From Giardia intestinalis (taxonomy: Eukaryota), in assembly GCA_000002435.2 (NCBI GenBank), contig CM018793.1: a DNA stretch of 64,000 bases. One strand, 5' to 3'. Under the pieces are notes generated by a model. It worked only from the letters and a program-made list of their open reading frames with translations. It was not told where the DNA came from and did not search any database. Of this stretch, positions 44,125-58,966 are shown piece by piece. The position numbers were made by a program, and so were the translations under genes. The stretch's first letter is position 1; each line of letters begins with the position of its first letter.

Positions 44125-45453
44125 ATGGCGCCCAGGGCGTCGTCGCCGGCGGAGGCTCCCTCCTTTCCGCCTGTGTCCTCTGCGCTGCAGATGCTTGTGC
44201 GGCCGCCTGTTCCAGCGTCAACCGGCGGGCATGACCCCGGTGGGGCGAGTCGTCTCCGAGAGGGACGCAGAGCCTGCGACCTGCGTTCTAGGCTGGGCCT
44301 TCTTCTGGGCCAGGCTGACGCGATGTCGGGGAGAAGCCGAGTGGGCCCGGAGACGCACTGCGCAAGGCTCCACCAGCTTCTAGCGCGGCTCGCAAGGCTG
44401 CAGGAAACAGACCGCTTGCTGGACGCCATTGAGTGTTCGAGTGCCTGCATGGCACAGATCAGCGACCTGGCCTGCCTCCGGTGCCTTCTTCGCGCACACT
44501 CCGCCCTAAGCATATCCCCGCCTCCGGCTGGCCGTGGCGTCTCTCTAGAGAGGCAGCGGCAGTGCATAGCGTCGTCCATCTGTGAGCACTTTTCAGCAGG
44601 AATCCGAGGGGCGCTGGACAGGATCCTTGCTTCGCGCCTCCGCGCCTGCCACGAGACGCGCGCTCAAGCGCATCTTACAAAGCCAGAGGCCTCCGACCAG
44701 CTGGCTAGCCTCCTGTCCGGCCTCCGTGTGGAGGATGCTGCCCCCATTTCGGCGCACTGGAGCGACCAGCTCTTCTACACGGCTCTCTGCCGCGAAGCAG
44801 CCGTTGTCTGCGAGTCCCTGTCTTCACTCGCCCTTTCGGTGTCGGAACAGGTTAGGCGCCGTATGCACCTGGGCGACAGCGGACCCTTGACTGCGCTGCT
44901 CCACGCCGCGAGGTCTTTCGTTTCTGCGTGCGAGCACGCCTTTTCTGTGTCCTTCCCGACTGGGCTGATGAGTGAGAGCGGAGAGGCAGGCCTTTTGCTG
45001 AGCGGGATCGAAGAGACGGGGCCCTACTTTTCTGCGCGATTGAAGCTGGCCCGAGCAAGGGAGCGGCCTCGTTTAATCGGGCGGCTGTTCGGTCGGTCCG
45101 CTGCGTCCCCCATCGAGGCATATGTAGAGCGTATTCGTCAAAACTTCAGCGGCCCTGCAGCATGGGCTCCCCCCTACCCAGAGCCGGGCCAGAGCCTTAT
45201 GTCTGACAGCTCTGCTGCGAGGCGGTGGCACACTACCGGCGCAGGCCAGCTCTTCGTCGACTTCCTTGTTTTGTTTCTGGGGTCAATCTTTGATGCATTT
45301 ACTCTCGGGGATCAGATTGCAACCTTCCCCTCTATAGGCCTGTATCTCAGCAACAATCCAGTGGCGGAGGAAGGCGGGCTATTCGCACGGGTCTTCGCTA
45401 CATACTCAGGAATGGTTGCCAGTGAAGCAGGGAGTCTAAGGGCTATCGAGTAG
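44125..45453 (+). CDS. Hypothetical protein (442 aa) in the GC-rich island
   Basis: True ATG at 44125 after gaccaaatcttaagttt. The C-terminal two-thirds has protein-like composition. The N-terminus is very GC/Pro/Ala-rich, so the start is uncertain (alternative ATG at 44323). Confidence 0.4.
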   Translation: MAPRASSPAEAPSFPPVSSALQMLVRPPVPASTGGHDPGGASRLREGRRACDLRSRLGLLLGQADAMSGRSRVGPETHCARLHQLLARLARLQETDRLLDAIECSSACMAQISDLACLRCLLRAHSALSISPPPAGRGVSLERQRQCIASSICEHFSAGIRGALDRILASRLRACHETRAQAHLTKPEASDQLASLLSGLRVEDAAPISAHWSDQLFYTALCREAAVVCESLSSLALSVSEQVRRRMHLGDSGPLTALLHAARSFVSACEHAFSVSFPTGLMSESGEAGLLLSGIEETGPYFSARLKLARARERPRLIGRLFGRSAASPIEAYVERIRQNFSGPAAWAPPYPEPGQSLMSDSSAARRWHTTGAGQLFVDFLVLFLGSIFDAFTLGDQIATFPSIGLYLSNNPVAEEGGLFARVFATYSGMVASEAGSLRAIE

Positions 45454-45543
45454 AGCCATTACTCTGTCCCGACGAGCCGATCCCGCCTGCCACTCGTCGC
45501 CCGTGCAGCACTGTCCCTCCGGGCACACGACAAGGCGCCTCGT

Positions 45544-47691
45544 GTGCGACCAGGCCAGCGGGCTCCCCCCTGGGGCAGCCCTCGGAGTGGGAGTCTCAGA
45601 GAGGAGGCCGCCGGGGCACCCCCACCCGCTGCGCGCAATCCGGTCCACACCACAGCCTCTCTACTGATACCCCTGTTCGTGGTGAGCGCGCTTGCAGTAA
45701 CCTGCCAGACCGGCAAGTGCGAGACGGTCGGATCAGCCGAGATTTGCACCCAGTGCAGGGCCGGGGGCGTCCCGGTCGACGGCTTCTGCTGGCCCCCCGG
45801 CTCCCCCCAGGCCGCGGCAGCCGGGTGCACCGAGGAAGACGGGGCTACCCTCGACAAGACGGCAACCACCTGCGGGAAGTGCGGCGACGGGTACTTCCTC
45901 TTCATGGGAGGGTGCTACAAGGTAGGACAAGATCCTGGCAGTGAGATATGCACAACAGCCAGTGATGGAGTGTGTACTACTTGTAAGACAGATAACGGCC
46001 TGTTCAAGAACCCGGCTACAGCACCGAAGCCTGGTAGTGAGTGCATCCTGTGCTCTGATATCAAGGGAGCAGATGGATATACGGGAGTAGAGAACTGCGC
46101 ACAGTGTACCAAGTCAGACAGTAACAAGGGGGCTGCCACGTGTACAGAATGCCAAGATGGATATTATAAAGATGCTAAAGGCGCATGTGTACAATGCCAG
46201 GGGAACTGCGCCACTTGTGAGACATCGGCGACCCAGTGTACCTCTTGTAAAGCGGGCTTCTATCTGAAGGACGGCAATAGCTGTGTGGCAGAAGGAGAAT
46301 GCACAAACACCGTTTATCCTGACCCAGAGTCGGGGAAGTGCAAGGCATGTAGTACAATAACTGATTGCACAGAATGCTCCTTCGACAAGGCCACGGGGAA
46401 GCCTCAGTGCACAGCCTGCGGTAGTCAGAAGACCCCCAGGACGACCCTTGATGGGACCTCGACCTGCGTCGATAAAACGCTTGACGGGTGCAAGGGCGCT
46501 GACGGGGCCTTATTTATGAAGGACGATACCACATGCGCCCTTTGCGGCGATGCGTCCCCTGGCGCTGGCGCAAACGATAAGGGGATTGCCGGGTGTAAGA
46601 CATGTACTAAGCAGCAAAGTCAGAAACCAGAATGCACAAGTTGTTTGGATGGATACTTCTTTGAACAGTCATCAAAGACTTGTTCGGCTTGTGCCTCCAA
46701 CTGTGCCACCTGCACGTCAGCTGATGTGTCAACTTGTACTGAGTGCCTTCCTGGGTACTTCCTAAAAACCGAGGGTGAAACGAAGTGTGCTGCATGCGAC
46801 AGTACACCAGATGGTGGCCGCGAAGGGTGCAGTCTATGTTCTAGCAACGGTGGATTTAAGTGCACTGAATGTAAGCCTAACTATAAGAAGCAGTCCAATG
46901 GAGGAGCAGGGGATGACTATACGTGTACAAAGGTGTGTGAAGACCCCACTGCTTGTGGGGGGACAGCTGGCTCTTGTGATGCCATAGTGATCGGTGCTGA
47001 TGGAAAGGAGCTTCACTATTGCTCATACTGTGGGGAGAGTACTAAGGTACCAATTGATGGCATCTGTGCTACTGATAAGAAAGGTAATACTTGTAACAGT
47101 CATACATGTACACAGTGTGCTCAAGGGTACTTCTTATACATGAATGGCTGTTACAAGGTTGGTCAAGAACCAGGTAGTCATATGTGCAAGACAGCAGGTA
47201 ATACTGGGATATGCACAGAAGCGGCCAACAATAGATACTTCGTAGTCCCAGAGGCAACCAATGCTCAGCAGTCTGTACTAGCATGTGGTAACCCATTAGG
47301 CACACTAATAGGTACTCAAGACAATGCTAAGGCATACGTGGGGGTCGAGGGCTGCTCCCAGTGTACAGCCCCAGTAGCTCTGACTGAGGCTGGTATGGCT
47401 GCCGCTACATGCACCTCCTGTGACAGTGATAAGAAGCCCAACAAGGATGGCACCGGGTGTGTGCTGTGCTCTGTGGGTGATTGCAAGAGCTGTGTGGTGG
47501 ATGATGTGTGTGGGGAGTGTGTTGATGGGTACAGTCTAGACAGCAGTGGGACCTCCTGTGTGTCTATGAGTACCAACAGGAGCGGGCTCTCCACGGGGGC
47601 CATCGCGGGGATCTCCGTCGCTGTGGTCGTCGTCGTGGGGGGCCTCGTGGGCTTCCTCTGCTGGTGGTTCATATGTAGAGGGAAGGCATGA
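45544..47691 (+). CDS. Variant-specific surface protein (VSP), copy A, the most complete copy. It has no in-frame ATG before the signal-peptide-like segment, so it may be a pseudogene or a junction copy
   Basis: CxxC-rich ectodomain with GGCY motifs. It ends ...NRSGLSTGAIAGISVAVVVVVGGLVGFLCWWFICRGKA*. The signal-like segment TASLLIPLFVVSALAVTC (about 45649-45702) sits in an ORF that opens with GTG at 45544 inside the GC-rich block. The first in-frame ATG comes only at FLFMGGCYK. AGTGAAT lies 8 nt after the stop. Confidence 0.6.
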   Translation: MRPGQRAPPWGSPRSGSLREEAAGAPPPAARNPVHTTASLLIPLFVVSALAVTCQTGKCETVGSAEICTQCRAGGVPVDGFCWPPGSPQAAAAGCTEEDGATLDKTATTCGKCGDGYFLFMGGCYKVGQDPGSEICTTASDGVCTTCKTDNGLFKNPATAPKPGSECILCSDIKGADGYTGVENCAQCTKSDSNKGAATCTECQDGYYKDAKGACVQCQGNCATCETSATQCTSCKAGFYLKDGNSCVAEGECTNTVYPDPESGKCKACSTITDCTECSFDKATGKPQCTACGSQKTPRTTLDGTSTCVDKTLDGCKGADGALFMKDDTTCALCGDASPGAGANDKGIAGCKTCTKQQSQKPECTSCLDGYFFEQSSKTCSACASNCATCTSADVSTCTECLPGYFLKTEGETKCAACDSTPDGGREGCSLCSSNGGFKCTECKPNYKKQSNGGAGDDYTCTKVCEDPTACGGTAGSCDAIVIGADGKELHYCSYCGESTKVPIDGICATDKKGNTCNSHTCTQCAQGYFLYMNGCYKVGQEPGSHMCKTAGNTGICTEAANNRYFVVPEATNAQQSVLACGNPLGTLIGTQDNAKAYVGVEGCSQCTAPVALTEAGMAAATCTSCDSDKKPNKDGTGCVLCSVGDCKSCVVDDVCGECVDGYSLDSSGTSCVSMSTNRSGLSTGAIAGISVAVVVVVGGLVGFLCWWFICRGKA

Positions 47692-47698
47692 CTCAGGT

Positions 47699-47705
47699 AG
47701 TGAAT
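47699..47705 (+). promoter_or_regulatory. AGTGAAT polyadenylation-signal-like motif 8 nt after the VSP stop. It is repeated after every array unit that ends in CRGKA
   Basis: tga ctcaggt AGTGAAT gc. In D/G-type units the motif is preceded by a cttaggt variant. Confidence 0.5.
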
Positions 47706-47844
47706 GCTATACAATGTGTGATAGTGTGTGATAATGGGTGATAGAGGGTGATAGTGGAGTGAGATATGTACAAAGGCCAGTAATGGACTGTGCACTGCTT
47801 GTAAGACAGATAACAAGTACATATTCCAGAACAGGGCAGACAAG

Positions 47845-49488
47845 GTGACCCCTGGTAGTGAGTGCATCCTCTGTCATGATGCCACGGGAGCGAATGAGAA
47901 CAAAGGAGTGGCCAACTGCCTCAAGTGCACGGCACCTGGTGGCAATACAGGACCTGCCACGTGTACAGAGTGTCAAGCAGGGTTCGTTACGAAGGACAGT
48001 GCATGTGAGAAGTGCGGAGAGGGCTGCTCTGCCTGCTCAGAGAGTGATCCAAATCAATGCTCGGCATGCCTTGAGGGGAAGTATCTGAAGGGTAATGCAT
48101 GTGTAGGACCCACTGAATGTGGTGATGGTAAGTATGCAGATCCAACAACAGGCCAATGCAAGGCATGTGGAATACCTGACTGCGCCACCTGTGAGTACAA
48201 TGCAACTATTAGTCAACCACAGTGTAAGACCTGCAATAGCAATAAGATGGTGAAGACAGCGGCAGACGGGACGACCACTTGTGTCGATGATGGTGGATGT
48301 ACAAATGGCAATACGCACTTTGTTGAAGGTACTAGCCCAAAGCTTTGTGTCCCGTGCGGTGATACTACAAATGGTGGGATTCTAGGTTGTAGTACTTGCT
48401 CCTCTAAAACTACATGTACAAAGTGCCTCGACGGATATTACGATAATGATGATAGTCAAGATACAGCTACGTGTGTCGCTTGTGGTGGACAAAATTGTGA
48501 GACATGTGCTAAGGCTACGAGTGATAAATGCACGACCTGTAAGCCTGGATTCTTCTTGAAGGATAGCTCCTCTGGTGAGTGCATCTCATGTAGTGACACA
48601 GCAAATGGTGGTCGCGAAGGCTGCAGTGTCTGCTCGAATGATAGTGGATTCAAGTGCACTGACTGTAAGCCTAACTATAAGAAGCAGCTTAATGGAGGAG
48701 CAGATGATGACTATACATGTGTGAAGACCTGTGAGGATGACACTGCTTGTGGTGGTACCTCTGGTGCTTGCGATGCCATAGTGATCAATGAGAATGGAAA
48801 GGAGCTTCACTACTGTTCATACTGTGGGGATAACAGTAAGTATCCTATAGATGGAAAATGTACAAATGTCAATGCTGGAAATACAGGATGCACCAATAAT
48901 GTCTGCAAGTCTTGTACTGCAGGGTACTTCCTCTATATGGGAGGGTGTTATAAGATTGGTGCAGAACCAGGCAACCTCATGTGCAAGACCGCTGAAGGTG
49001 GTAAGTGCACTGCTGTTAATGCCAATAATAGGTACTTCGTAGTCCCAGAGGCACAGGCTACTGATCAGTCTGTGTTGGCATGTGGCAACCCCCTTGGCAC
49101 ACTAGTAGGCACTGATAGTACCTCTAAGGCATATGTGGGGGTAGATGGCTGCTCCCAGTGTACAGCCCCAGTAGCTCTGACTGAGGCTGGTATGGCTGCC
49201 GCTACATGCACCTCCTGTGACAGTGATAAGGTGCCCAACAAGGATGGCACCGGGTGTGTGCTGTGCTCTGTGGGTGATTGCAAGAGCTGTGTGGTGGATG
49301 ATGTGTGTGGGGAGTGTGTTGATGGGTACAGTCTAGACAGCAGTGGGACCTCCTGTGTGTCTATGAGTACCAACAGGAGCGGGCTCTCCACGGGGGCCAT
49401 CGCGGGGATCTCCGTCGCTGTGGTCGTCGTCGTGGGGGGCCTCGTGGGCTTCCTCTGCTGGTGGTTCATATGTAGAGGGAAGGCATGA
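47845..49488 (+). CDS. VSP copy B, 5'-truncated (homology begins about 47767 at ...EICTKASNG...); intact TM+CRGKA tail; likely a pseudogene or silent donor
   Basis: There is no ATG or signal peptide. In-frame stops (tga, tag) lie immediately upstream of the homology start. The C-terminus ...CWWFICRGKA* is followed by an AGTGAAT motif. Confidence 0.55.
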   Translation: MTPGSECILCHDATGANENKGVANCLKCTAPGGNTGPATCTECQAGFVTKDSACEKCGEGCSACSESDPNQCSACLEGKYLKGNACVGPTECGDGKYADPTTGQCKACGIPDCATCEYNATISQPQCKTCNSNKMVKTAADGTTTCVDDGGCTNGNTHFVEGTSPKLCVPCGDTTNGGILGCSTCSSKTTCTKCLDGYYDNDDSQDTATCVACGGQNCETCAKATSDKCTTCKPGFFLKDSSSGECISCSDTANGGREGCSVCSNDSGFKCTDCKPNYKKQLNGGADDDYTCVKTCEDDTACGGTSGACDAIVINENGKELHYCSYCGDNSKYPIDGKCTNVNAGNTGCTNNVCKSCTAGYFLYMGGCYKIGAEPGNLMCKTAEGGKCTAVNANNRYFVVPEAQATDQSVLACGNPLGTLVGTDSTSKAYVGVDGCSQCTAPVALTEAGMAAATCTSCDSDKVPNKDGTGCVLCSVGDCKSCVVDDVCGECVDGYSLDSSGTSCVSMSTNRSGLSTGAIAGISVAVVVVVGGLVGFLCWWFICRGKA

Positions 49489-49510
49489 CTCAGGTAGTGA
49501 ATGCTATACA

Positions 49511-49560
49511 ATGTGTGATAATGGGTAATAGAGGGTGATAGTGTGATAGTGGAGTGTGAT
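49511..49560 (+). repeat. Degenerate (G)TGATAG(TG) short-repeat spacer between a VSP stop/poly(A) motif and the next truncated VSP body. It recurs in every inter-unit spacer
   Basis: atgtgtgataatgggtaatagagggtgatagtgtgatagtggagtgtgat. Variants of it occur at about 47710-47765, 51395-51460, 53265-53320, 55155-55210, 57050-57115 and 58920-58965. Confidence 0.7.
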
Positions 49561-51379
49561 ATGTACAAAGGCCAGTAATGGACTGTGCACTGCTTGTAAG
49601 ACAGATAACAAGTACATATTCCAGAACAGGGCAGACAAGGTGACTCCTGGTGGGGAGTGCATCTTGTGCTCTGATATCAAGGGAGCGAATGGATATACGG
49701 GAGTGGCCAACTGTCTCAAGTGTACGGCACCAGGGAATGCAGGACCTGCCACGTGTAATACCTGTCAAGAGGGGTACTTCCTAAACAACAAGCTTTGTAA
49801 GCCATGCGAGGGGAACTGTGCCACCTGTGAGACATCGGCGACCCAGTGCACATCGTGTCCAGAGGGGAAGTACCTCAATGGGAATCAATGTACTGATAGC
49901 TGTGGTAATGATAAGTATGCTGATCCAGAGTCTGGAACGTGCATGGCATGTAGTACAATAACTGATTGCACGGCATGCAAGTACAATGCGACTGTCAGTA
50001 AGCCCCAGTGCACTAACTGTGGCAGTAAGAAGGTGAAGACGGCCATCGATGGCACCACAACGTGCGTTGATGTGAGCTCTGGATGCCAGGATGCTGATCA
50101 CTTCAAGGCAGATGGTGATGCTGCGTGTGTCTTGTGCAGCGATACCAGCGGAGATAATGAGAACACAAATAAGGGACTGGAGGGCTGTAGTGCGTGCACA
50201 AAACCTAATAACAACCAACCACCCGCTTGTACCGGATGCTTACCCGGATATTACGATTCTGCGCCCGGCACCTTCAAGTGTAAGGCCTGTGCTCCCAACT
50301 GTGCCACCTGCACTCAAATTGGAGACGATAAGTGCTTGACCTGTAAGGAGGGGTTCTTCATGAAAGTCAGTGGCCCCGGTGAGTGCGTCCCTTGTAGTGA
50401 TACAGCTAAGGATGGCATCGATGGATGTGCAACGTGCACCTTCTCTAGCTCGTTGACCTGCAACTCCTGTAAGGTGAACTACAAGCAGAGCGGTACCCCT
50501 TCAACTGGGGTCACATGCACCAGGACTTGTGAAGATGATACGGCCTGCGGGGGTACCTCTGGTGCCTGCGATGCCATGATAATTGATGATAAGGGCACCA
50601 CAAAGCACTACTGTTCATACTGTGGGGATAGTTCACAAGCTCCTATAGATGGACTATGCACTAATAACAAAGAAAGTAATACTTGTACTAGTCATACATG
50701 TACATCATGTGCTGCTAACTACTTCCTCTATATGGGTGGCTGTTATAGCACTCAGAAGGCTCCTGGCAACTACATGTGCAAGACCGCAGGTAACAATGGG
50801 ATATGCACAGAAGCGGCCAACAATAGGTACTTCGTAGTCCCAGAAGCAACCAATGCTCAACAGTCTGTCCTGGCATGTGGTAACCCCCTTGGCACACTGA
50901 CAGGCACTGGTGATACTGCTAAGGCATACGTTGGGGTGGATGGCTGCTCCCAGTGCACAGCCCCAGCAGCTCCATCTGATGGTGGTATGACCCCCGCTGT
51001 GTGCACCTCTTGTGACAATAGTAAGAAGCCCAACCTGGCTGGGAGCGGGTGCTTCCCATGTGCCGTTGTTGGATGCTCGCACTGTGATATGGACAACAAG
51101 TGCTCCGCCTGCACAGAGGGGGGCAAGAGACCCAACAAGGAAGGGACAGCATGCTTTGAATGTAACGTGGAGGGGTGCGCTTATTGTAGTGGTGCTAATA
51201 AGTGTGAAGAGTGCAGCGATGGGTTCAAATTAGAGGGTGACAAGTGCGTGTCTTCTGGCACCAACAGGAGCGGGCTGTCTACTGGCGCCATCGCGGGCAT
51301 CTCCGTCGCTGTGGTCGTCGTCGTGGGGGGCCTCGTGGGCTTCCTCTGCTGGTGGTTCCTCTGCAGGGGGAAGGCGTGA
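49556..51379 (+). CDS. VSP copy C (607-aa type), 5'-truncated, starting at ICTKASNGLCTACKTDN...; tail ...CWWFLCRGKA*
   Basis: GTG-initiated ORF only. The nearest ATG (atgtac) is out of frame. Identical in protein to copy F. Confidence 0.55.
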   Translation: MICTKASNGLCTACKTDNKYIFQNRADKVTPGGECILCSDIKGANGYTGVANCLKCTAPGNAGPATCNTCQEGYFLNNKLCKPCEGNCATCETSATQCTSCPEGKYLNGNQCTDSCGNDKYADPESGTCMACSTITDCTACKYNATVSKPQCTNCGSKKVKTAIDGTTTCVDVSSGCQDADHFKADGDAACVLCSDTSGDNENTNKGLEGCSACTKPNNNQPPACTGCLPGYYDSAPGTFKCKACAPNCATCTQIGDDKCLTCKEGFFMKVSGPGECVPCSDTAKDGIDGCATCTFSSSLTCNSCKVNYKQSGTPSTGVTCTRTCEDDTACGGTSGACDAMIIDDKGTTKHYCSYCGDSSQAPIDGLCTNNKESNTCTSHTCTSCAANYFLYMGGCYSTQKAPGNYMCKTAGNNGICTEAANNRYFVVPEATNAQQSVLACGNPLGTLTGTGDTAKAYVGVDGCSQCTAPAAPSDGGMTPAVCTSCDNSKKPNLAGSGCFPCAVVGCSHCDMDNKCSACTEGGKRPNKEGTACFECNVEGCAYCSGANKCEECSDGFKLEGDKCVSSGTNRSGLSTGAIAGISVAVVVVVGGLVGFLCWWFLCRGKA

Positions 51380-51387
51380 CTTAGGTA

Positions 51388-53253
51388 GTGAATGCTGTAC
51401 AATGTGTGATAATGGGTGATAGTATGATAGTGGTGTGTGGGGGTGATAGTGATAGTACGGGACTTCTCTTCATGGGCGGGTGCTACAAGACAGAGAGTCA
51501 GCCCGGCAGTGACATATGCACACAGGCTGAGGGAGGAGTGTGCACTGCTTGTAAGGCAGATAGTCAGTACATATTCCAGAATGGGGCAGAGAAGGTGACC
51601 CCTGGTGGGGAGTGCATACTGTGCTGGGATACTATAGATAGAAACGGGGTCATGGGAGTCAAGGACTGTCTCAAGTGTACGGCACCAGCTAATAACAAGG
51701 GGGCTGCCACGTGTACAGAATGCCAAGCAGGGTACGTTAAGGATAACGCTTCTAATACGTGTAAGAAGTGCGGAGAGGGCTGCTCCGAGTGCTCAGAGAG
51801 TGATCAGCAATCGTGTACTGCCTGCTTTGAAGGGAAGTTCCTGAAGGCTGACAGTAAGACTTGTGTAGAGGCTAATCAATGTGGTAATGATAAGTATGCA
51901 GACCCGACAACAGGCCAATGTAAGGCATGCACAGACACAAGTGTCAATGAATGTGCTACGTGTACATACAGCGACACTCTTCAGAAGCCGGTGTGCACTG
52001 GATGCGGGGGCCAAAAGCCGCTTCTCAAGCAAAAAGCTGATGGCACAGTAGAATGTGTTGATGATGGCGGCTGCCCTACTGGTGATACCCACTTCCTTGA
52101 ACAATATCCAAAGGCTTGTGTCCCATGTGGTGATAATACACGAGGCGGCGTTGTCGGATGTAGCACCTGCACTGCAAAGGGAGGGTGCTCTGCCTGTTTA
52201 GCTGGGTATATAAAAGAGGGAAGTAGCGACCCAGTTACATGCACCCCCTGTCACGCCAACTGTGCTACATGCTCTGCTGCTGGCAAGGATAAGTGTGATA
52301 CATGCAAGCCAGGGTACTTCATGAAAGGCAGTGGTCCTACTGGTGAGTGCGTTGCTTGTGACAGTGAAGCCGACAATGGCATCGAGGGCTGTGGTGCATG
52401 CACAAACGATGGCGGTGCTTTCAAGTGCACCGATTGCAAGCCCAACTATCGCAAGCAGAGCGATAGCAGTTCTGGCTCTGTTACATGTACAAAGGTGTGT
52501 GAAGATGATACTGCCTGCGGGGGCACTTCTGGTGCCTGCGATGCAATAGTGATTGATGCTAATGGAAAGGAGCTTCATTATTGTTCTTATTGTGGGGATA
52601 ACAGTAAGGTACCAATTGATGGCATCTGTGCTACTGATAAGAAAGGTAATACTTGTAACAGTCATACATGTACACAGTGTGCTCAAGGGTACTTCTTATA
52701 CATGAATGGCTGTTACAAGGTTGGTCAAGAACCAGGTAGTCATATGTGCAAGACAGCAGGTAATACTGGGATATGCACAGAAGCGGCCAACAATAGATAC
52801 TTCGTAGTCCCAGAGGCAACCAATGCTCAGCAGTCTGTACTAGCATGTGGTAACCCATTAGGCACACTAATAGGTACTCAAGACAATGCTAAGGCATACG
52901 TGGGAGTGGATGGCTGCTCCCAGTGTACAGCCCCAGTAGCTCTGACTGATGGTGGTATGACCCCTGCTATATGTACCTCCTGTGACAGTGATAAGAAGCC
53001 CAACAAGGATGGCACCGGGTGTGTGCTGTGCTCTGTGGGTGATTGCAAGAGCTGTGTGGTGGATGATGTGTGTGGGGAGTGTGTTGATGGGTACAGTCTA
53101 GACAGCAGTGGGACCTCCTGTGTGTCTATGAGTACCAACAGGAGCGGGCTCTCCACGGGGGCCATCGCGGGGATCTCCGTCGCTGTGGTCGTCGTCGTGG
53201 GGGGCCTCGTGGGCTTCCTCTGCTGGTGGTTCATATGTAGAGGGAAGGCATGA
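51388..53253 (+). CDS. VSP copy D (621-aa type), 5'-truncated; VSP homology begins at LLFMGGCYK (about 51462); tail ...CWWFICRGKA*
   Basis: The ORF runs in frame through the GTGATAG spacer, which supplies ATG codons (MGDSMIVVCGG...) but no signal peptide. Near-identical to copy G. The C-terminal part is near-identical to that of copy A. Confidence 0.55.
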   Translation: MNAVQCVIMGDSMIVVCGGDSDSTGLLFMGGCYKTESQPGSDICTQAEGGVCTACKADSQYIFQNGAEKVTPGGECILCWDTIDRNGVMGVKDCLKCTAPANNKGAATCTECQAGYVKDNASNTCKKCGEGCSECSESDQQSCTACFEGKFLKADSKTCVEANQCGNDKYADPTTGQCKACTDTSVNECATCTYSDTLQKPVCTGCGGQKPLLKQKADGTVECVDDGGCPTGDTHFLEQYPKACVPCGDNTRGGVVGCSTCTAKGGCSACLAGYIKEGSSDPVTCTPCHANCATCSAAGKDKCDTCKPGYFMKGSGPTGECVACDSEADNGIEGCGACTNDGGAFKCTDCKPNYRKQSDSSSGSVTCTKVCEDDTACGGTSGACDAIVIDANGKELHYCSYCGDNSKVPIDGICATDKKGNTCNSHTCTQCAQGYFLYMNGCYKVGQEPGSHMCKTAGNTGICTEAANNRYFVVPEATNAQQSVLACGNPLGTLIGTQDNAKAYVGVDGCSQCTAPVALTDGGMTPAICTSCDSDKKPNKDGTGCVLCSVGDCKSCVVDDVCGECVDGYSLDSSGTSCVSMSTNRSGLSTGAIAGISVAVVVVVGGLVGFLCWWFICRGKA

Positions 53254-53320
53254 CTCAGGTAGTGAATGCTATACAATGTGTGATAATGGGTAATAGAGGG
53301 TGATAGTGTGATAGTGGAGT

Positions 53321-55144
53321 GTGATATGTACAAAGGCCAGTAATGGACTGTGCACTGCTTGTAAGACAGATAACAAGTACATATTCCAGAACAGGGCAGA
53401 CAAGGTGACTCCTGGTGGGGAGTGCATCTTGTGCTCTGATATCAAGGGAGCGAATGGATATACGGGAGTGGCCAACTGTCTCAAGTGTACGGCACCAGGG
53501 AATGCAGGACCTGCCACGTGTAATACCTGTCAAGAGGGGTACTTCCTAAACAACAAGCTTTGTAAGCCATGCGAGGGGAACTGTGCCACCTGTGAGACAT
53601 CGGCGACCCAGTGCACATCGTGTCCAGAGGGGAAGTACCTCAATGGGAATCAATGTACTGATAGCTGTGGTAATGGTAAGTATGCTGATCCAGAGTCTGG
53701 AACGTGCATGGCATGTAGTACAATAACTGATTGCACGGCATGCAAGTACAATGCGACTGTCAGTAAGCCCCAGTGCACTAACTGTGGCAGTAAGAAGGTG
53801 AAGACGGCCATCGATGGCACCACAACGTGCGTTGATGTGAGCTCTGGATGCCAGGATGCTGATCACTTCAAGGCAGATGGTGATGCTGCGTGTGTCTTGT
53901 GCAGCGATACCAGCGGAGATAATGAGAACACAAATAAGGGACTGGAGGGCTGTAGTGCGTGCACAAAACCTAATAACAACCAACCACCCGCTTGTACCGG
54001 ATGCTTACCCGGATATTACGATTCTGCGCCCGGCACCTTCAAGTGTAAGGCCTGTGCTCCCAACTGTGCCACCTGCACTCAAATTGGAGACGATAAGTGC
54101 TTGACCTGTAAGGAGGGGTTCTTCATGAAAGTCAGTGGCCCCGGTGAGTGCGTCCCTTGTAGTGATACAGCTAAGGATGGCATCGATGGATGTGCAACGT
54201 GCACCTTCTCTAGCTCGTTGACCTGCAACTCCTGTAAGGTGAACTACAAGCAGAGCGGTACCCCTTCAACTGGGGTCACATGCACCAGGACTTGTGAAGA
54301 TGATACGGCCTGCGGGGGTACCTCTGGTGCCTGCGATGCCATGATAATTGATGATAAGGGCACCACAAAGCACTACTGTTCATACTGTGGGGATAGTTCA
54401 CAAGCTCCTATAGATGGACTATGCACTAATAACAAAGAAAGTAATACTTGTACTAGTCATACATGTACATCATGTGCTGCTAACTACTTCCTCTATATGG
54501 GTGGCTGTTATAGCACTCAGAAGGCTCCTGGCAACTACATGTGCAAGACCGCAGGTAACAATGGGATATGCACAGAAGCGGCCAACAATAGGTACTTCGT
54601 AGTCCCAGAAGCAACCAATGCTCAACAGTCTGTCCTGGCATGTGGTAACCCCCTTGGCACACTGACAGGCACTGGTGATACTGCTAAGGCATACGTTGGG
54701 GTGGATGGCTGCTCCCAGTGCACAGCCCCAGCAGCTCCATCTGATGGTGGTATGACCCCCGCTGTGTGCACCTCTTGTGACAATAGTAAGAAGCCCAACC
54801 TGGCTGGGAGCGGGTGCTTCCCATGTGCCGTTGTTGGATGCTCGCACTGTGATATGGACAACAAGTGCTCCGCCTGCACAGAGGGGGGCAAGAGACCCAA
54901 CAAGGAAGGGACAGCATGCTTTGAATGTAACGTGGAGGGGTGCGCTTATTGTAGTGGTGCTAATAAGTGTGAAGAGTGCAGCGATGGGTTCAAATTAGAG
55001 GGTGACAAGTGCGTGTCTTCTGGCACCAACAGGAGCGGGCTCTCCACGGGGGCCATCGCGGGGATCTCCGTCGCTGTGGTCGTCGTCGTGGGGGGCCTCG
55101 TGGGCTTCCTCTGCTGGTGGTTCATATGTAGAGGGAAGGCATGA
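53321..55144 (+). CDS. VSP copy E (607-aa type), 5'-truncated; tail ...CWWFICRGKA*
   Basis: Differs from copies C and F only at a few positions (GNGKY versus GNDKY, FICRGKA versus FLCRGKA). Confidence 0.55.
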   Translation: MICTKASNGLCTACKTDNKYIFQNRADKVTPGGECILCSDIKGANGYTGVANCLKCTAPGNAGPATCNTCQEGYFLNNKLCKPCEGNCATCETSATQCTSCPEGKYLNGNQCTDSCGNGKYADPESGTCMACSTITDCTACKYNATVSKPQCTNCGSKKVKTAIDGTTTCVDVSSGCQDADHFKADGDAACVLCSDTSGDNENTNKGLEGCSACTKPNNNQPPACTGCLPGYYDSAPGTFKCKACAPNCATCTQIGDDKCLTCKEGFFMKVSGPGECVPCSDTAKDGIDGCATCTFSSSLTCNSCKVNYKQSGTPSTGVTCTRTCEDDTACGGTSGACDAMIIDDKGTTKHYCSYCGDSSQAPIDGLCTNNKESNTCTSHTCTSCAANYFLYMGGCYSTQKAPGNYMCKTAGNNGICTEAANNRYFVVPEATNAQQSVLACGNPLGTLTGTGDTAKAYVGVDGCSQCTAPAAPSDGGMTPAVCTSCDNSKKPNLAGSGCFPCAVVGCSHCDMDNKCSACTEGGKRPNKEGTACFECNVEGCAYCSGANKCEECSDGFKLEGDKCVSSGTNRSGLSTGAIAGISVAVVVVVGGLVGFLCWWFICRGKA

Positions 55145-55211
55145 CTCAGGTAGTGAATGCTATACAATGTGTGATAATGGGTAATAGAGGGTGATAGTGT
55201 GATAGTGGAGT

Positions 55212-57035
55212 GTGATATGTACAAAGGCCAGTAATGGACTGTGCACTGCTTGTAAGACAGATAACAAGTACATATTCCAGAACAGGGCAGACAAGGTGAC
55301 TCCTGGTGGGGAGTGCATCTTGTGCTCTGATATCAAGGGAGCGAATGGATATACGGGAGTGGCCAACTGTCTCAAGTGTACGGCACCAGGGAATGCAGGA
55401 CCTGCCACGTGTAATACCTGTCAAGAGGGGTACTTCCTAAACAACAAGCTTTGTAAGCCATGCGAGGGGAACTGTGCCACCTGTGAGACATCGGCGACCC
55501 AGTGCACATCGTGTCCAGAGGGGAAGTACCTCAATGGGAATCAATGTACTGATAGCTGTGGTAATGATAAGTATGCTGATCCAGAGTCTGGAACGTGCAT
55601 GGCATGTAGTACAATAACTGATTGCACGGCATGCAAGTACAATGCGACTGTCAGTAAGCCCCAGTGCACTAACTGTGGCAGTAAGAAGGTGAAGACGGCC
55701 ATCGATGGCACCACAACGTGCGTTGATGTGAGCTCTGGATGCCAGGATGCTGATCACTTCAAGGCAGATGGTGATGCTGCGTGTGTCTTGTGCAGCGATA
55801 CCAGCGGAGATAATGAGAACACAAATAAGGGACTGGAGGGCTGTAGTGCGTGCACAAAACCTAATAACAACCAACCACCCGCTTGTACCGGATGCTTACC
55901 CGGATATTACGATTCTGCGCCCGGCACCTTCAAGTGTAAGGCCTGTGCTCCCAACTGTGCCACCTGCACTCAAATTGGAGACGATAAGTGCTTGACCTGT
56001 AAGGAGGGGTTCTTCATGAAAGTCAGTGGCCCCGGTGAGTGCGTCCCTTGTAGTGATACAGCTAAGGATGGCATCGATGGATGTGCAACGTGCACCTTCT
56101 CTAGCTCGTTGACCTGCAACTCCTGTAAGGTGAACTACAAGCAGAGCGGTACCCCTTCAACTGGGGTCACATGCACCAGGACTTGTGAAGATGATACGGC
56201 CTGCGGGGGTACCTCTGGTGCCTGCGATGCCATGATAATTGATGATAAGGGCACCACAAAGCACTACTGTTCATACTGTGGGGATAGTTCACAAGCTCCT
56301 ATAGATGGACTATGCACTAATAACAAAGAAAGTAATACTTGTACTAGTCATACATGTACATCATGTGCTGCTAACTACTTCCTCTATATGGGTGGCTGTT
56401 ATAGCACTCAGAAGGCTCCTGGCAACTACATGTGCAAGACCGCAGGTAACAATGGGATATGCACAGAAGCGGCCAACAATAGGTACTTCGTAGTCCCAGA
56501 AGCAACCAATGCTCAACAGTCTGTCCTGGCATGTGGTAACCCCCTTGGCACACTGACAGGCACTGGTGATACTGCTAAGGCATACGTTGGGGTGGATGGC
56601 TGCTCCCAGTGCACAGCCCCAGCAGCTCCATCTGATGGTGGTATGACCCCCGCTGTGTGCACCTCTTGTGACAATAGTAAGAAGCCCAACCTGGCTGGGA
56701 GCGGGTGCTTCCCATGTGCCGTTGTTGGATGCTCGCACTGTGATATGGACAACAAGTGCTCCGCCTGCACAGAGGGGGGCAAGAGACCCAACAAGGAAGG
56801 GACAGCATGCTTTGAATGTAACGTGGAGGGGTGCGCTTATTGTAGTGGTGCTAATAAGTGTGAAGAGTGCAGCGATGGGTTCAAATTAGAGGGTGACAAG
56901 TGCGTGTCTTCTGGCACCAACAGGAGCGGGCTGTCTACTGGCGCCATCGCGGGCATCTCCGTCGCTGTGGTCGTCGTCGTGGGGGGCCTCGTGGGCTTCC
57001 TCTGCTGGTGGTTCCTCTGCAGGGGGAAGGCGTGA
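55212..57035 (+). CDS. VSP copy F (607-aa type), 5'-truncated; tail ...CWWFLCRGKA*
   Basis: Protein identical to copy C. It starts 5656 bp downstream of copy C. Confidence 0.55.
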   Translation: MICTKASNGLCTACKTDNKYIFQNRADKVTPGGECILCSDIKGANGYTGVANCLKCTAPGNAGPATCNTCQEGYFLNNKLCKPCEGNCATCETSATQCTSCPEGKYLNGNQCTDSCGNDKYADPESGTCMACSTITDCTACKYNATVSKPQCTNCGSKKVKTAIDGTTTCVDVSSGCQDADHFKADGDAACVLCSDTSGDNENTNKGLEGCSACTKPNNNQPPACTGCLPGYYDSAPGTFKCKACAPNCATCTQIGDDKCLTCKEGFFMKVSGPGECVPCSDTAKDGIDGCATCTFSSSLTCNSCKVNYKQSGTPSTGVTCTRTCEDDTACGGTSGACDAMIIDDKGTTKHYCSYCGDSSQAPIDGLCTNNKESNTCTSHTCTSCAANYFLYMGGCYSTQKAPGNYMCKTAGNNGICTEAANNRYFVVPEATNAQQSVLACGNPLGTLTGTGDTAKAYVGVDGCSQCTAPAAPSDGGMTPAVCTSCDNSKKPNLAGSGCFPCAVVGCSHCDMDNKCSACTEGGKRPNKEGTACFECNVEGCAYCSGANKCEECSDGFKLEGDKCVSSGTNRSGLSTGAIAGISVAVVVVVGGLVGFLCWWFLCRGKA

Positions 57036-57043
57036 CTTAGGTA

Positions 57044-58909
57044 GTGAATGCTGTACAATGTGTGATAATGGGTGATAGTATGATAGTGGTGTGTGGGGGT
57101 GATAGTGATAGTACGGGACTTCTCTTCATGGGCGGGTGCTACAAGACAGAGAGTCAGCCCGGCAGTGACATATGCACACAGGCTGAGGGAGGAGTGTGCA
57201 CTGCTTGTAAGGCAGATAGTCAGTACATATTCCAGAATGGGGCAGAGAAGGTGACCCCTGGTGGGGAGTGCATACTGTGCTGGGATACTATAGATAGAAA
57301 CGGGGTCATGGGAGTCAAGGACTGTCTCAAGTGTACGGCACCAGCTAATAACAAGGGGGCTGCCACGTGTACAGAATGCCAAGCAGGGTACGTTAAGGAT
57401 AACGCTTCTAATACGTGTAAGAAGTGCGGAGAGGGCTGCTCCGAGTGCTCAGAGAGTGATCAGCAATCGTGTACTGCCTGCTTTGAAGGGAAGTTCCTGA
57501 AGGCTGACAGTAAGACTTGTGTAGAGGCTAATCAATGTGGTAATGATAAGTATGCAGACCCGACAACAGGCCAATGTAAGGCATGCACAGACACAAGTGT
57601 CAATGAATGTGCTACGTGTACATACAGCGACACTCTTCAGAAGCCGGTGTGCACTGGATGCGGGGGCCAAAAGCCGCTTCTCAAGCAAAAAGCTGATGGC
57701 ACAGTAGAATGTGTTGATGATGGCGGCTGCCCTACTGGTGATACCCACTTCCTTGAACAATATCCAAAGGCTTGTGTCCCATGTGGTGATAATACACGAG
57801 GCGGCGTTGTCGGATGTAGCACCTGCACTGCAAAGGGAGGGTGCTCTGCCTGTTTAGCTGGGTATATAAAAGAGGGAAGTAGCGACCCAGTTACATGCAC
57901 CCCCTGTCACGCCAACTGTGCTACATGCTCTGCTGCTGGCAAGGATAAGTGTGATACATGCAAGCCAGGGTACTTCATGAAAGGCAGTGGTCCTACTGGT
58001 GAGTGCGTTGCTTGTGACAGTGAAGCCGACAATGGCATCGAGGGCTGTGGTGCATGCACAAACGATGGCGGTGCTTTCAAGTGCACCGATTGCAAGCCCA
58101 ACTATCGCAAGCAGAGCGATAGCAGTTCTGGCTCTGTTACATGTACAAAGGTGTGTGAAGATGATACTGCCTGCGGGGGCACTTCTGGTGCCTGCGATGC
58201 AATAGTGATTGATGCTAATGGAAAGGAGCTTCATTATTGTTCTTATTGTGGGGATAACAGTAAGGTACCAATTGATGGCATCTGTGCTACTGATAAGAAA
58301 GGTAATACTTGTAACAGTCATACATGTACACAGTGTGCTCAAGGGTACTTCTTATACATGAATGGCTGTTACAAGGTTGGTCAAGAACCAGGTAGTCATA
58401 TGTGCAAGACAGCAGGTAATACTGGGATATGCACAGAAGCGGCCAACAATAGATACTTCGTAGTCCCAGAGGCAACCAATGCTCAGCAGTCTGTACTAGC
58501 ATGTGGTAACCCATTAGGCACACTAATAGGTACTCAAGACAATGCTAAGGCATACGTGGGGGTCGAGGGCTGCTCCCAGTGTACAGCCCCAGTAGCTCTG
58601 ACTGAGGCTGGTATGGCTGCCGCTACATGCACCTCCTGTGACAGTGATAAGAAGCCCAACAAGGATGGCACCGGGTGTGTGCTGTGCTCTGTGGGTGATT
58701 GCAAGAGCTGTGTGGTGGATGATGTGTGTGGGGAGTGTGTTGATGGGTACAGTCTAGACAGCAGTGGGACCTCCTGTGTGTCTATGAGTACCAACAGGAG
58801 CGGGCTCTCCACGGGGGCCATCGCGGGGATCTCCGTCGCTGTGGTCGTCGTCGTGGGGGGCCTCGTGGGCTTCCTCTGCTGGTGGTTCATATGTAGAGGG
58901 AAGGCATGA
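57044..58909 (+). CDS. VSP copy G (621-aa type), 5'-truncated; tail ...CWWFICRGKA*
   Basis: Near-identical to copy D and 5656 bp downstream of it. The C-terminal 300 aa are identical to copy A, not to copy D. Confidence 0.55.
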   Translation: MNAVQCVIMGDSMIVVCGGDSDSTGLLFMGGCYKTESQPGSDICTQAEGGVCTACKADSQYIFQNGAEKVTPGGECILCWDTIDRNGVMGVKDCLKCTAPANNKGAATCTECQAGYVKDNASNTCKKCGEGCSECSESDQQSCTACFEGKFLKADSKTCVEANQCGNDKYADPTTGQCKACTDTSVNECATCTYSDTLQKPVCTGCGGQKPLLKQKADGTVECVDDGGCPTGDTHFLEQYPKACVPCGDNTRGGVVGCSTCTAKGGCSACLAGYIKEGSSDPVTCTPCHANCATCSAAGKDKCDTCKPGYFMKGSGPTGECVACDSEADNGIEGCGACTNDGGAFKCTDCKPNYRKQSDSSSGSVTCTKVCEDDTACGGTSGACDAIVIDANGKELHYCSYCGDNSKVPIDGICATDKKGNTCNSHTCTQCAQGYFLYMNGCYKVGQEPGSHMCKTAGNTGICTEAANNRYFVVPEATNAQQSVLACGNPLGTLIGTQDNAKAYVGVEGCSQCTAPVALTEAGMAAATCTSCDSDKKPNKDGTGCVLCSVGDCKSCVVDDVCGECVDGYSLDSSGTSCVSMSTNRSGLSTGAIAGISVAVVVVVGGLVGFLCWWFICRGKA

Positions 58910-58966
58910 CTCAGGTAGTGAATGCTATACAATGTGTGATAATGGGTGATAGTATGATAGTGGAGT

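Follow-up and report, generated by a model that had tools for sequence, protein, structure and literature searches.

A GTGATAG Micro-Repeat Spacer Joins the Units of a Tandem Pseudo-VSP Array in Giardia intestinalis

The interval 47692-47770 of a 64,000-nt stretch of Giardia intestinalis DNA (contig CM018793.1, assembly GCA_000002435.2; the whole stretch is referred to here as the window) lies between two units of a tandem VSP array. The preferred reading, to which a probability of roughly 75% is given, is that a pseudo-VSP cassette was amplified here together with the junction that it had inherited, the spacer being a microsatellite, and that deletions anchored in repeats came later. The spacer is a genuine and conserved unit junction, with the same order of elements at all seven junctions of the window, and its repeat was confirmed by Tandem Repeats Finder and by 8-mer enrichment. 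The earlier note that drew attention to this interval had taken a GTGATAG-like repeat as the bridge between units and the GGCY motif as the place where they are joined; its observation is partly confirmed and its interpretation partly supported by the present analysis.

Eight VSP Units Form a Tandem Array

Anchoring on stop codons delimited eight head-to-tail Giardia VSP units, A to H, on the + strand at 45.6-60.7 kb, separated by spacers of 59-79 nt, which is the layout of a tandem ("linear") array (Table 1). A profile search of the flanking ORFs gave matches to Pfam PF03302 for A (E=2e-46), D (4e-43) and B (3e-39), and the nearest database proteins to these ORFs were Giardia intestinalis/duodenalis VSPs, so that the window is Giardia nuclear DNA. 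The ORF list had been prepared with the bacterial translation table and is to be read accordingly. The unit translations contained the Cys-rich, CXXC-rich ectodomain of VSPs, and a TM segment followed by CRGKA and a stop (...WWF(I/L)CRGKA*) closed seven of the eight units, A-G. Unit H, also truncated at its 5' end, finished in ...GLVGLLC* and lacked CRGKA.

Translation and DNA of unit A revealed a full-length VSP body with the signal-peptide-like SLLIPLFVVSALA, both GGCY blocks, TM and CRGKA. Neither an in-frame ATG nor an Inr was found in its 5'-end DNA, despite a long upstream region, and the same ATG-less 5' region recurred in the contigs L009 (isolate DH) and L010. The translations and the junction alignment placed the start of units B-H inside the ectodomain, with the 5' end missing. 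A proper N-terminal VSP signal peptide was not found in the units: B-H start in the ectodomain, and A has the hydrophobic segment without an ATG. The PyAATGTT initiator did not occur once on the + strand in 45000-61000. Downstream members with no proper start, Inr or signal peptide are what characterizes a pseudo-VSP array, and judging from their sequence the cassettes are most likely silent.

Table 1. Coordinates of the units, spacers and spacer elements in the window.
Feature	Positions	Wider span	Strand	Junction type	Spacer length (nt)	Basis or remarks
Unit A, head copy	45658-47691	45454-47691 (stop-anchored)	+			Translation, 5'-end DNA, Pfam
VSP extended poly(A) signal ACTCAGGTAGTGAATGC	47691-47707		+			Hexamer AGTGAA 47699-47704; overlaps last stop-codon base
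A>B spacer	47692-47762		+	2	71	Junction alignment; part of flagged 47692-47770
Degenerate GTGATAG(TGG) micro-repeat, C-free	47718-47762		+			Tandem Repeats Finder, 8-mer enrichment, composition
Unit B, 5'-truncated cassette	47763-49488	47692-49488 (with spacer)	+	2		Ends CRGKA-TGA
B>C spacer	49489-49557		+	2	69	Junction alignment
Unit C, truncated cassette	49558-51379	49489-51379 (with spacer, 1891 nt)	+	2
C>D spacer	51380-51458		+	1	79	Frame open into unit D
Unit D, truncated cassette	51459-53253	51380-53253 (with spacer)	+	1		FMGGCYK ATG at 51472
D>E spacer	53254-53322		+	2	69
Unit E, copy of C	53323-55144	53254-55144 (with spacer)	+
E>F spacer	55145-55213		+	2	69
Unit F, identical to C	55214-57035	55145-57035 (with spacer)	+
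F>G spacer	57036-57114		+	1	79	Identical to C>D spacer
Unit G, copy of D	57115-58909	57036-58909 (with spacer)	+
G>H spacer	58910-58968		+	2	59	5' half identical to D/G spacer
Unit H, last cassette	58969-60658	58910-60658 (with spacer)	+			Both ends damaged

The Spacer Combines an Extended Poly(A) Signal With a Micro-Repeat

The ORF that precedes the flagged interval ends in ...GLVGFLCWWFICRGKA-TGA at 47691, and the interval itself reads ctcaggtAGTGAATgctatacaatgtgtgatagtgtgtgataatgggtgatagagggtgatagtggagtgagatatgta. Position 47692 is the base directly after the TGA of this ...WWFICRGKA ORF, and ctcaggt-AGTGAAT-gctatacaatg is followed from there by GTGATAG-like repeats. The order of elements was constant: the CRGKA stop, the extended poly(A) signal (PAS) ACTYAGGTAGTGAATGC, then GCTATACAATGTG, a GTGATAG/GATAGT micro-repeat and finally the VSP body. 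Written out for the seven junctions of the window (7/7), TGA is followed by CT(C/T)AGGTAGTGAATGC, T(A/G)TACAATGTGTGATA, a variable GTGATAG/GATAGT-like run and the VSP body.

The string ACT(C/T)AGGTAGTGAATGC after the stop of units A-G corresponds to the extended PAS, ACUUAGRU-AGURAAYRY, described in all 136 VSPs and in most pseudo-VSPs (Rodriguez-Walker et al. preprint 10.1101/2022.03.07.483299). At A>B the first 17 nt, counted from the stop-codon A, fit this consensus except for a C in place of U at the fourth position; at C>D and F>G the spacer has CTT instead and agrees with the published signal at every position. The constant part of the spacer after the PAS is about 13 nt long, and the point 13-15 nt 3' of AGTGAA falls inside GCTATACAATG. 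An origin of the spacer from the ordinary VSP 3' flank past the PAS was considered and rejected, since the flanks in L007-L010 diverge right after AGTRAAYGC.

Tandem Repeats Finder assigned to the micro-repeat of the A>B spacer (47718-47762) a period of 10, with 4.4 copies and 82% matches. The 8-mer GGTGATAG was present 12 times in the window against 1.97 expected, a count that none of 100 shuffles reached, and ten of the 12 lay inside the seven spacers, where copies are not independent of each other because whole units have been duplicated. Past its first 22 nt, each spacer of the window had 0-1 C in 37-57 nt; this strand bias is notable, if not unusual for such repeats. Over the 12 classifiable junctions of the window and four further contigs, spacer length ranged from 58 to 101 nt and the homologous spacers carried 1-4 exact, or 1-7 near, copies of GTGATAG. 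The spacer repeat thus behaves like a slippage-prone microsatellite, with length and copy number varying between homologous spacers and flanks that are conserved, and the earlier suggestion that the GTGATAG units look like slippage products was supported. Neither a structured RNA nor a known RNA family was found in the spacer: the spacers matched no Rfam family and folded no better than shuffled sequence (fold z-scores of +0.6 to +2.0).

Units Enter the VSP Body at Few, Shared Points

The junction alignment resolved two classes, each in register, among the seven junctions of the window. In type 1 (C>D at 51380 and F>G at 57036) homology to the VSP body begins at ..ACGGGACTTCTCTTCATGGGCGGGTGCTAC; the first FMGGCYK follows some 5 codons later, and the junction lies 14-17 nt upstream of its ATG. 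In type 2 (A>B, B>C, D>E, E>F and G>H) the entry lies 55 nt further downstream, at AGTG(A/T)GATATG (..SEICT, AGTGAGATATG), and alignment and translations agree that the first GGCY motif is gone altogether from these units. A third type, with entry at GGGTGATTGCAAG, was found in L005, where the spacer leads at GGGTGGTTGCAAGAGCTG into a very short unit of about 70 codons; this point is near the C-terminus, about 1.5 kb further in and far from either GGCY motif.

The earlier note stated that the 3' flank runs straight into the VSP body, with the entry at or just before the first FMGGCYK. The former was seen at all seven junctions and the latter at only two of them; the flagged A>B interval is itself of type 2, 55 nt past the type-1 entry, so the junctions do not generally fall at GGCY. 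The strings quoted for D/G (...gtgatagtacgggacttctcttcatgggcgggtgctacaag) and copy A (gcgacgggtacttcctcttcatgggagggtgctacaag) are present in the DNA, and the VSP bodies do hold the motif, F/Y-M-G/N-G-C-Y, twice, as had been claimed: the first block lies at 45904 in A, 51472 in D and 57128 in G, and every unit has the second some 550 nt upstream of its stop. An intragenic exchange between the two copies, which the earlier note had put forward for testing against the second motif, was not supported. The 96 nt at the D entry were 71% identical to the first block of A versus 42-60% to the second-block regions of A, B, C, D and H, the best match of the type-2 junctions in copy A also adjoins the first block, and the second motif is in place everywhere.

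All type-1 junctions have in common the derived string GGGACTTCTCTTCAT(G/A)GG, where full-length genes have TACTTCCTCTTCATGG. As the units with type-1 junctions are only about 52-63% identical as proteins, the same derived breakpoint in such diverged units argues for one founding event that was inherited by descent. The sequence comparison therefore points to a single founding event, presumably amplified by unequal crossover, behind the type-1 junctions.

Possible Microhomology at the Derived Junctions

A variant of the second type, 2b, with the junction GGGTGATATGCACAGCAGCC, was found in L006 and L013. A deletion between the GATA strings of the L005 type-1 sequence (GGGTGATA / GTATGGG...GCGAGATA / TGCACAGCAGCC) would give exactly GGGTGATATGCACAGCAGCC. 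In copy A, GGGTGATTG at 47475, the counterpart of the type-3 entry, was the best match to GGGTGATAG in the 2-kb body, with 1 mismatch, and the type-2 site GTGAGATAT was among the top matches to GTGTGATAG in the same body. The H spacer is the same as that of D up to and including GATAGTGG and continues directly with AGTGTGATATGCACA; the loss of about 71 nt in a D-like ancestor would fit this pattern, though with a microhomology of only 1-2 nt. For the type-2a junction of the window, with its 1-2 nt of microhomology, the deletion model is weaker.

Microhomology between the micro-repeat and GTGA/GATA-like sites of the body is thus a plausible account of the derived, shorter junction types, and not of joins at GGCY. 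The argument is partly circular, since a junction within repeat-like sequence cannot be placed exactly. The earlier proposal of microhomology-mediated joining at the repeated GGCY motif was not supported: the type-1 junctions point to one inherited breakpoint, and the microhomology lies at repeat-like body sites instead.

The Spacer Occurs Beyond This Locus

The spread of the spacer was judged on four extra contigs and on protein N-termini. Two Giardia contigs from ENA metagenome assemblies, L005 and L006, carried the same spacer before diverged VSP units, and L013, from a third sample, repeated the L006 form. The contig L009 is the syntenic locus of isolate DH, with 94% identity over 3.5 kb upstream, and contains a two-unit array with a type-1 junction; past unit H the window showed no alignment to the DNA that follows the array in DH, and synteny is limited to the upstream side. 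The units that follow the spacer in L005, L006, L013 and L009 were 75-90% identical to the units of the window at the DNA level, with one 303-nt patch at 99% in L005. In addition, four WB proteins of an older annotation (P0001, P0002, P0004 and P0006) have an N-terminus that corresponds to the translated spacer followed by LLFMGGCYK, e.g., MLYSDSDSAMWCGGDSGGVGLLFMGGCYK, and two ENA proteins start with MICTAAS, the type-2 form. None of these spacer-led WB or MICTAAS proteins was more than 67% identical to any unit of the window. The spacer is hence not unique to this locus; uniqueness would have counted against the earlier note.

No match to the spacer AGGTAGTGAATGCTNTAYARTGTGTGATA, or to the general VSP 3' end, was found in the JGI metagenome collection. 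In a small sample of four stand-alone or array-terminal VSP 3' flanks (L007-L010), the PAS was present and the micro-repeat absent; nor was the repeat found upstream of the two intact VSP 5' ends sampled (L008 and L012). Two candidate junctions were discarded. The assemblage-B proteins starting VNDPAGVSIDSLCRP, with a PAS-like GTGAAC, had looked like another array junction; the DNA upstream is not a VSP 3' end, and the corresponding DNA (L007, L011 and L012) shares an upstream region and represents a separate 5'-defective VSP family. The P15 protein P0053, whose start MGGCYR resembled that of a truncated unit, is actually a full-length gene with a premature TAG.

Units Show Duplication and Mosaicism

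Unit C with its spacer (1891 nt) was 100% identical to F and differed from E at 11 of 1891 positions. D and G differed at 11 of 1874 positions, all within 70 nt, and G has A-type sequence in that stretch. Taken together, C-D and F-G differ at 11 of 3765 positions, i.e., they form a higher-order duplication of 5656 bp. In its last 120 nt unit E has the same 3'-end sequence as A, B, D and G; this end and the 70-nt stretch of G are conversion patches.

Identity in sliding windows was equally uneven. Over the last ~700 alignment columns A and G were 100% identical (92-100% for D), with ~50-60% in mid-unit; A and B were 98-100% identical over the last ~300 columns; and B and C reached 97% right after the junction, followed by 54-77%. 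The few positions that separate C from E and D from G are grouped in patches of 70-100 nt with the sequence of other units. Such patchy identity is a signature of gene conversion or unequal crossover, and the same processes acting among the units also explain why the spacers have stayed similar.

Spacer ATGs in Units D and G Are Probably Incidental

In units D and G one reading frame runs without a stop from the spacer to the end of CRGKA, and the in-frame ATGs that the earlier note had mentioned are present, at 51412 and 51424 in D. The reading 'MNAVQ...' given for these units was, however, an artefact of the bacterial table, as it begins at a GTG; the first true in-frame ATG gives MGDSMIVVCGG..., and the spacers of B, C, E, F and H contain in-frame stops. 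That units of the D/G type might be expressible, with the spacer contributing both a start codon and a hydrophobic, G/T-encoded leader that stands in for a signal peptide, is highly improbable. The open frame and its two ATGs speak for it, and the WB protein P0002 has a spacer-coded leader, MIVLCGVLCSV, as hydrophobic as real VSP signal peptides in a Kyte-Doolittle scan, from which it follows that the repeat can encode V/I/L/C/G in one frame. The D/G leader itself, counted from the ATG, peaked at a 10-residue mean of 1.41 versus about 2.4 for real VSP signal peptides. Moreover, the in-frame ATGs stand in the context TAATGGG and the other spacer ATG in CAATGTG, neither of which is PyAATGTT, the initiator carried by 135 of 136 real VSPs. 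Given this context and an at most weakly hydrophobic stretch, the spacer ATGs in D/G are probably incidental and not functional VSP starts.

A further point against expression is that the spacer-led WB proteins come from the 'eukprot' source only, whereas WB VSPs of chromosome-length contigs have ncbi/uniref entries as well. This status fits a reclassification as pseudo-VSPs and does not prove it. VSPs without a predicted signal peptide have been annotated as pseudo-VSPs (Xu et al., 2020, PMC7000408).

Origin of the Junction

In the preferred reading, the type-1 junction would go back to one ancestral rearrangement that placed this 3' flank next to a VSP body, with the break some 5 codons ahead of the first FMGGCYK. 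The resulting unit (body, stop, poly(A) signal and spacer) would then have been multiplied and diversified by unequal crossover and gene conversion, and the length of the microsatellite would drift through replication slippage. Type 2 (..GTGAGATATG) and type 3 would have arisen later, through deletions that began in the microsatellite and ended at repeat-like sites of the body, and gene conversion would pass sequence among the cassettes and between them and head copy A. If there was a single founding event, the nearness of the junction to GGCY would be a historical accident of the founding breakpoint and not the mark of a recurrent motif-driven join. Among the points against this reading is that head copy A lacks an ATG and an Inr, and the array is therefore without the 'typical first gene' of Adam et al.

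Repeated illegitimate or microhomology-mediated joining at the twice-present GGCY, possibly by intragenic unequal exchange between the motif copies, is largely refuted and has very little probability left. It could draw on the position of both type-1 junctions close upstream of the FMGGCYK ATG, on the presence of two motifs in each full-length body and on the G-C-Y codons GGGTGCTAC, which are at most 2 mismatches from the spacer repeat GGGTGATAG. Five of the seven junctions are nevertheless away from the motif, the type-3 unit enters ~1.5 kb beyond, and the sequence after the junction resembles the first motif region and not the second, which all units have kept; a single event is also favored by the derived breakpoint, which is the same in units that have diverged. 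Less remote, though still unlikely, is the view that the constant spacer segment is what remains of the 5' end of a VSP, namely of an Inr, an ATG and Leu-Leu-Ile-Ala codons (CAATGTTGTTGATAG turned into CAATGTGTGATAG). Each unit would once have been a complete gene lying directly behind the previous poly(A) signal, the region from the signal peptide to about residue 85 would have been lost by internal deletion, and GTGATAG would have grown by slippage from TTGATAG codons. In its favor, CAATGTGTGATAG aligned 13/13, with two 1-nt gaps, to the P15 VSP start in L008 (CAATGTTGTTGATAG), an alignment of 8/8 (TACAATGT) was obtained with a GS VSP start, and among 37-mers taken from the window at random or centred on an ATG, just 0.7% and 2-3% reached such a score; the position ~12 nt after the PAS hexamer is also where a tightly packed downstream gene would begin. 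These p-values are modest, though, for a low-complexity sequence compared with two real 5' ends, and YAATGT[TG] is common by chance. Some spacers, besides, lack CAATG: L005 has GCTCTATAGTGTGTGATAG, and P0001, P0004 and P0006 imply GCTATACAGTGATAGT.

It is doubtful that the spacer is a functional recombination boundary which, together with the TM/CRGKA 3' end, defines a movable gene-conversion cassette in the manner of the T. brucei 70-bp repeats. Every cassette is indeed bracketed by a conserved spacer and a conserved 3' end, there is mosaicism with conversion patches among the units and with head copy A, a cassette hypothesis has already been proposed (PMC2996952) and genetic exchange has been inferred in G. 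muris (PMC7641422). The conversion tracts, however, end inside coding sequence and not at the spacer, and common descent together with concerted evolution accounts for the conservation of the latter. The micro-repeat, being absent from the 3' flanks of L007-L010 and not found before the 5' ends of L008 and L012, could not, as far as this small sample goes, be a 5' homology shared with an expression site. Equally improbable is the related idea that PAS, C-free micro-repeat and TM/CRGKA make up a mobile cassette in which a fragile, slippage-prone micro-repeat starts gene conversion or unequal exchange. If that were true, it would provide a DNA-level route to new Giardia VSPs beside epigenetic switching. 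Under the preferred reading of an inherited junction, the analysis serves chiefly to correct the earlier note, and the addition is a small one, namely the anatomy of the junction: a shared spacer in which the PAS is followed by a micro-repeat prone to slippage, one inherited founding breakpoint close to the first GGCY block, and shorter cassettes that resemble deletions anchored in the repeat. The spacer may also serve as a simple marker for tracing the expansion of pseudo-VSP arrays.

Comparison With Known Arrays

The array as an object is already known from the descriptions of Adam et al., Xu et al. and Rodriguez-Walker et al. The 'linear arrays' of Adam et al. (2010; PMC2996952) hold over half of the WB vsp repertoire, with spacers that average 60 bp; the first member is often a typical gene (12/25) that has an Inr and non-coding DNA ahead of it, and their downstream members have no Inr and were proposed to be silent cassettes or discarded genes. 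According to the preprint of Rodriguez-Walker et al. (10.1101/2022.03.07.483299), GGCY occurs in one or two copies, pseudo-VSPs also have the extended PAS, and pseudo-VSPs that lack the 5' part form arrays. In G. muris, pseudo-VSP arrays lie next to telomeres, are untranscribed and appear to have exchanged sequence with intact VSPs (Xu et al., 2020, PMC7641422). A pseudo-VSP array with truncated, start-less members has thus been published for Giardia. No description of the spacer sequence, the GTGATAG micro-repeat or the exact breakpoints was found in Adam 2010, Xu 2020 or the Rodriguez-Walker preprint, and the anatomy of spacer and breakpoints appears to be undescribed.

The present array agrees with the linear or pseudo-VSP arrays of G. 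intestinalis (PMC2996952; PMC7000408; 10.1101/2022.03.07.483299) in the spacing of ~60 bp, in CRGKA and the extended PAS, in downstream members without Inr, start or signal peptide and in its closely related duplicated pairs. It departs from the arrays of Adam et al. (2010) in that the first member also lacks the ATG and the Inr, a difference that is not strict because first members were only 'often' typical there. The G. muris arrays are alike in being tandem, signal-peptide-less VSP copies made by duplication, and differ in species, in their GCRGK tail and in being adjacent to telomeres. Compared with ordinary microsatellite or minisatellite slippage, the spacer repeat is alike in its 6-10-nt unit, imperfect copies and copy-number variation, and no substantive difference was seen.

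Silent and often truncated tandem antigen cassettes are also a feature of the VSG arrays of T. brucei, with their upstream 70-bp repeats, and of Borrelia vls. In these two systems the transfer of cassettes into an expression site, with which they have repeats in common, has been demonstrated. The array described here differs in that mosaicism is visible only among silent units and in that the spacer repeat is not at the few stand-alone VSPs examined; it is like them in being built of tandem cassettes that are bracketed by a short, imperfect upstream repeat and a conserved 3' block.

The Head Copy and Partial VSPs of Other Isolates

The 5′ region of unit A, the head copy of the array, contains a signal-peptide-like segment, SLLIPLFVVSALA, and neither an ATG nor an initiator (Inr) was found in this region. 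P0055, a WB gene related to unit A (81% identical), starts with MFQLIPLFVASALMA. The same ATG-less region was found again in isolate DH and in an ENA contig, and this recurrence identifies it as a conserved, repeated VSP 5′ module lacking a start.

The P15 protein P0053 was considered as a truncated cassette and rejected, since the DNA of its contig contains a full-length VSP, with Inr, ATG and signal peptide intact, interrupted by an in-frame TAG. P0053 is the tail of this VSP, which is a point-mutation pseudogene.

In assemblage B, about 25 "partial VSP" proteins share the N-terminus VNDPAGVSIDSLCRP. At least 150 nt of conserved upstream DNA, ending in ...gtgtgAGTGAACGATCC, is common to the genes of this type in the three GS contigs, and this DNA does not represent a VSP 3′ end. 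Many of these proteins also have an aberrant C-terminus, of the KSSSALCC type, in place of TM-CRGKA. They look like a separate amplified family whose copies are defective both 5′ and 3′.

Coordinates of the features analyzed
Feature	Sequence	Position	Remarks
5′ region of unit A	Window	45454-45700	Conserved upstream stretch, ~200 nt
ATG-less 5′ region as in unit A	L009	9700-10000	DH, syntenic locus
ATG-less 5′ region as in unit A	L010	9750-10000	ENA contig, different locus
P0053 locus	L008	9722-10000	Giardia P15; annotated VSP, start MGGCYR
Upstream DNA of partial VSPs	L007	9840-10060	Giardia GS, GCA_000498735.1
Upstream DNA of partial VSPs	L011	2830-3050	Giardia GS, GCA_000498735.1
Upstream DNA of partial VSPs	L012	9840-10060	Giardia GS, GCA_000498735.1
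Near-identical pair E vs C	Window	53254-55144 vs 49489-51379	
Near-identical pair G vs D	Window	57036-58909 vs 51380-53253	
End of unit H and DNA beyond	Window	60640-61276	
ORF after unit H	Window	61277-63778	833 aa, N-terminus MRVLILLLLHG; VSP Pfam profile match
Miniature array unit	L005	1880-2150	~70 codons, spacer on both sides

Exchange and Edges of the Array

Differences within the near-identical pairs are clustered: of the 11 between C and E, 10 lie in a 3′-terminal stretch of 100 nt, and the 11 between D and G are all confined to 70 nt. In every such patch, one of the paired units has the sequence of another unit, and the patches are read as short gene-conversion tracts within the array. 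Unit H ends prematurely (...GLVGLLC*), and no CRGKA, poly(A) signal (PAS) or spacer was found at its end. The ORF that follows probably encodes a high-cysteine membrane protein. Downstream of the array in the DH locus, no synteny with the window was found.

The miniature unit of the metagenomic Giardia contig consists only of the last Cys-rich segment, TM and CRGKA, and is similar to "vsp14" (224 bp), which appears in Adam et al. (2010; PMC2996952).
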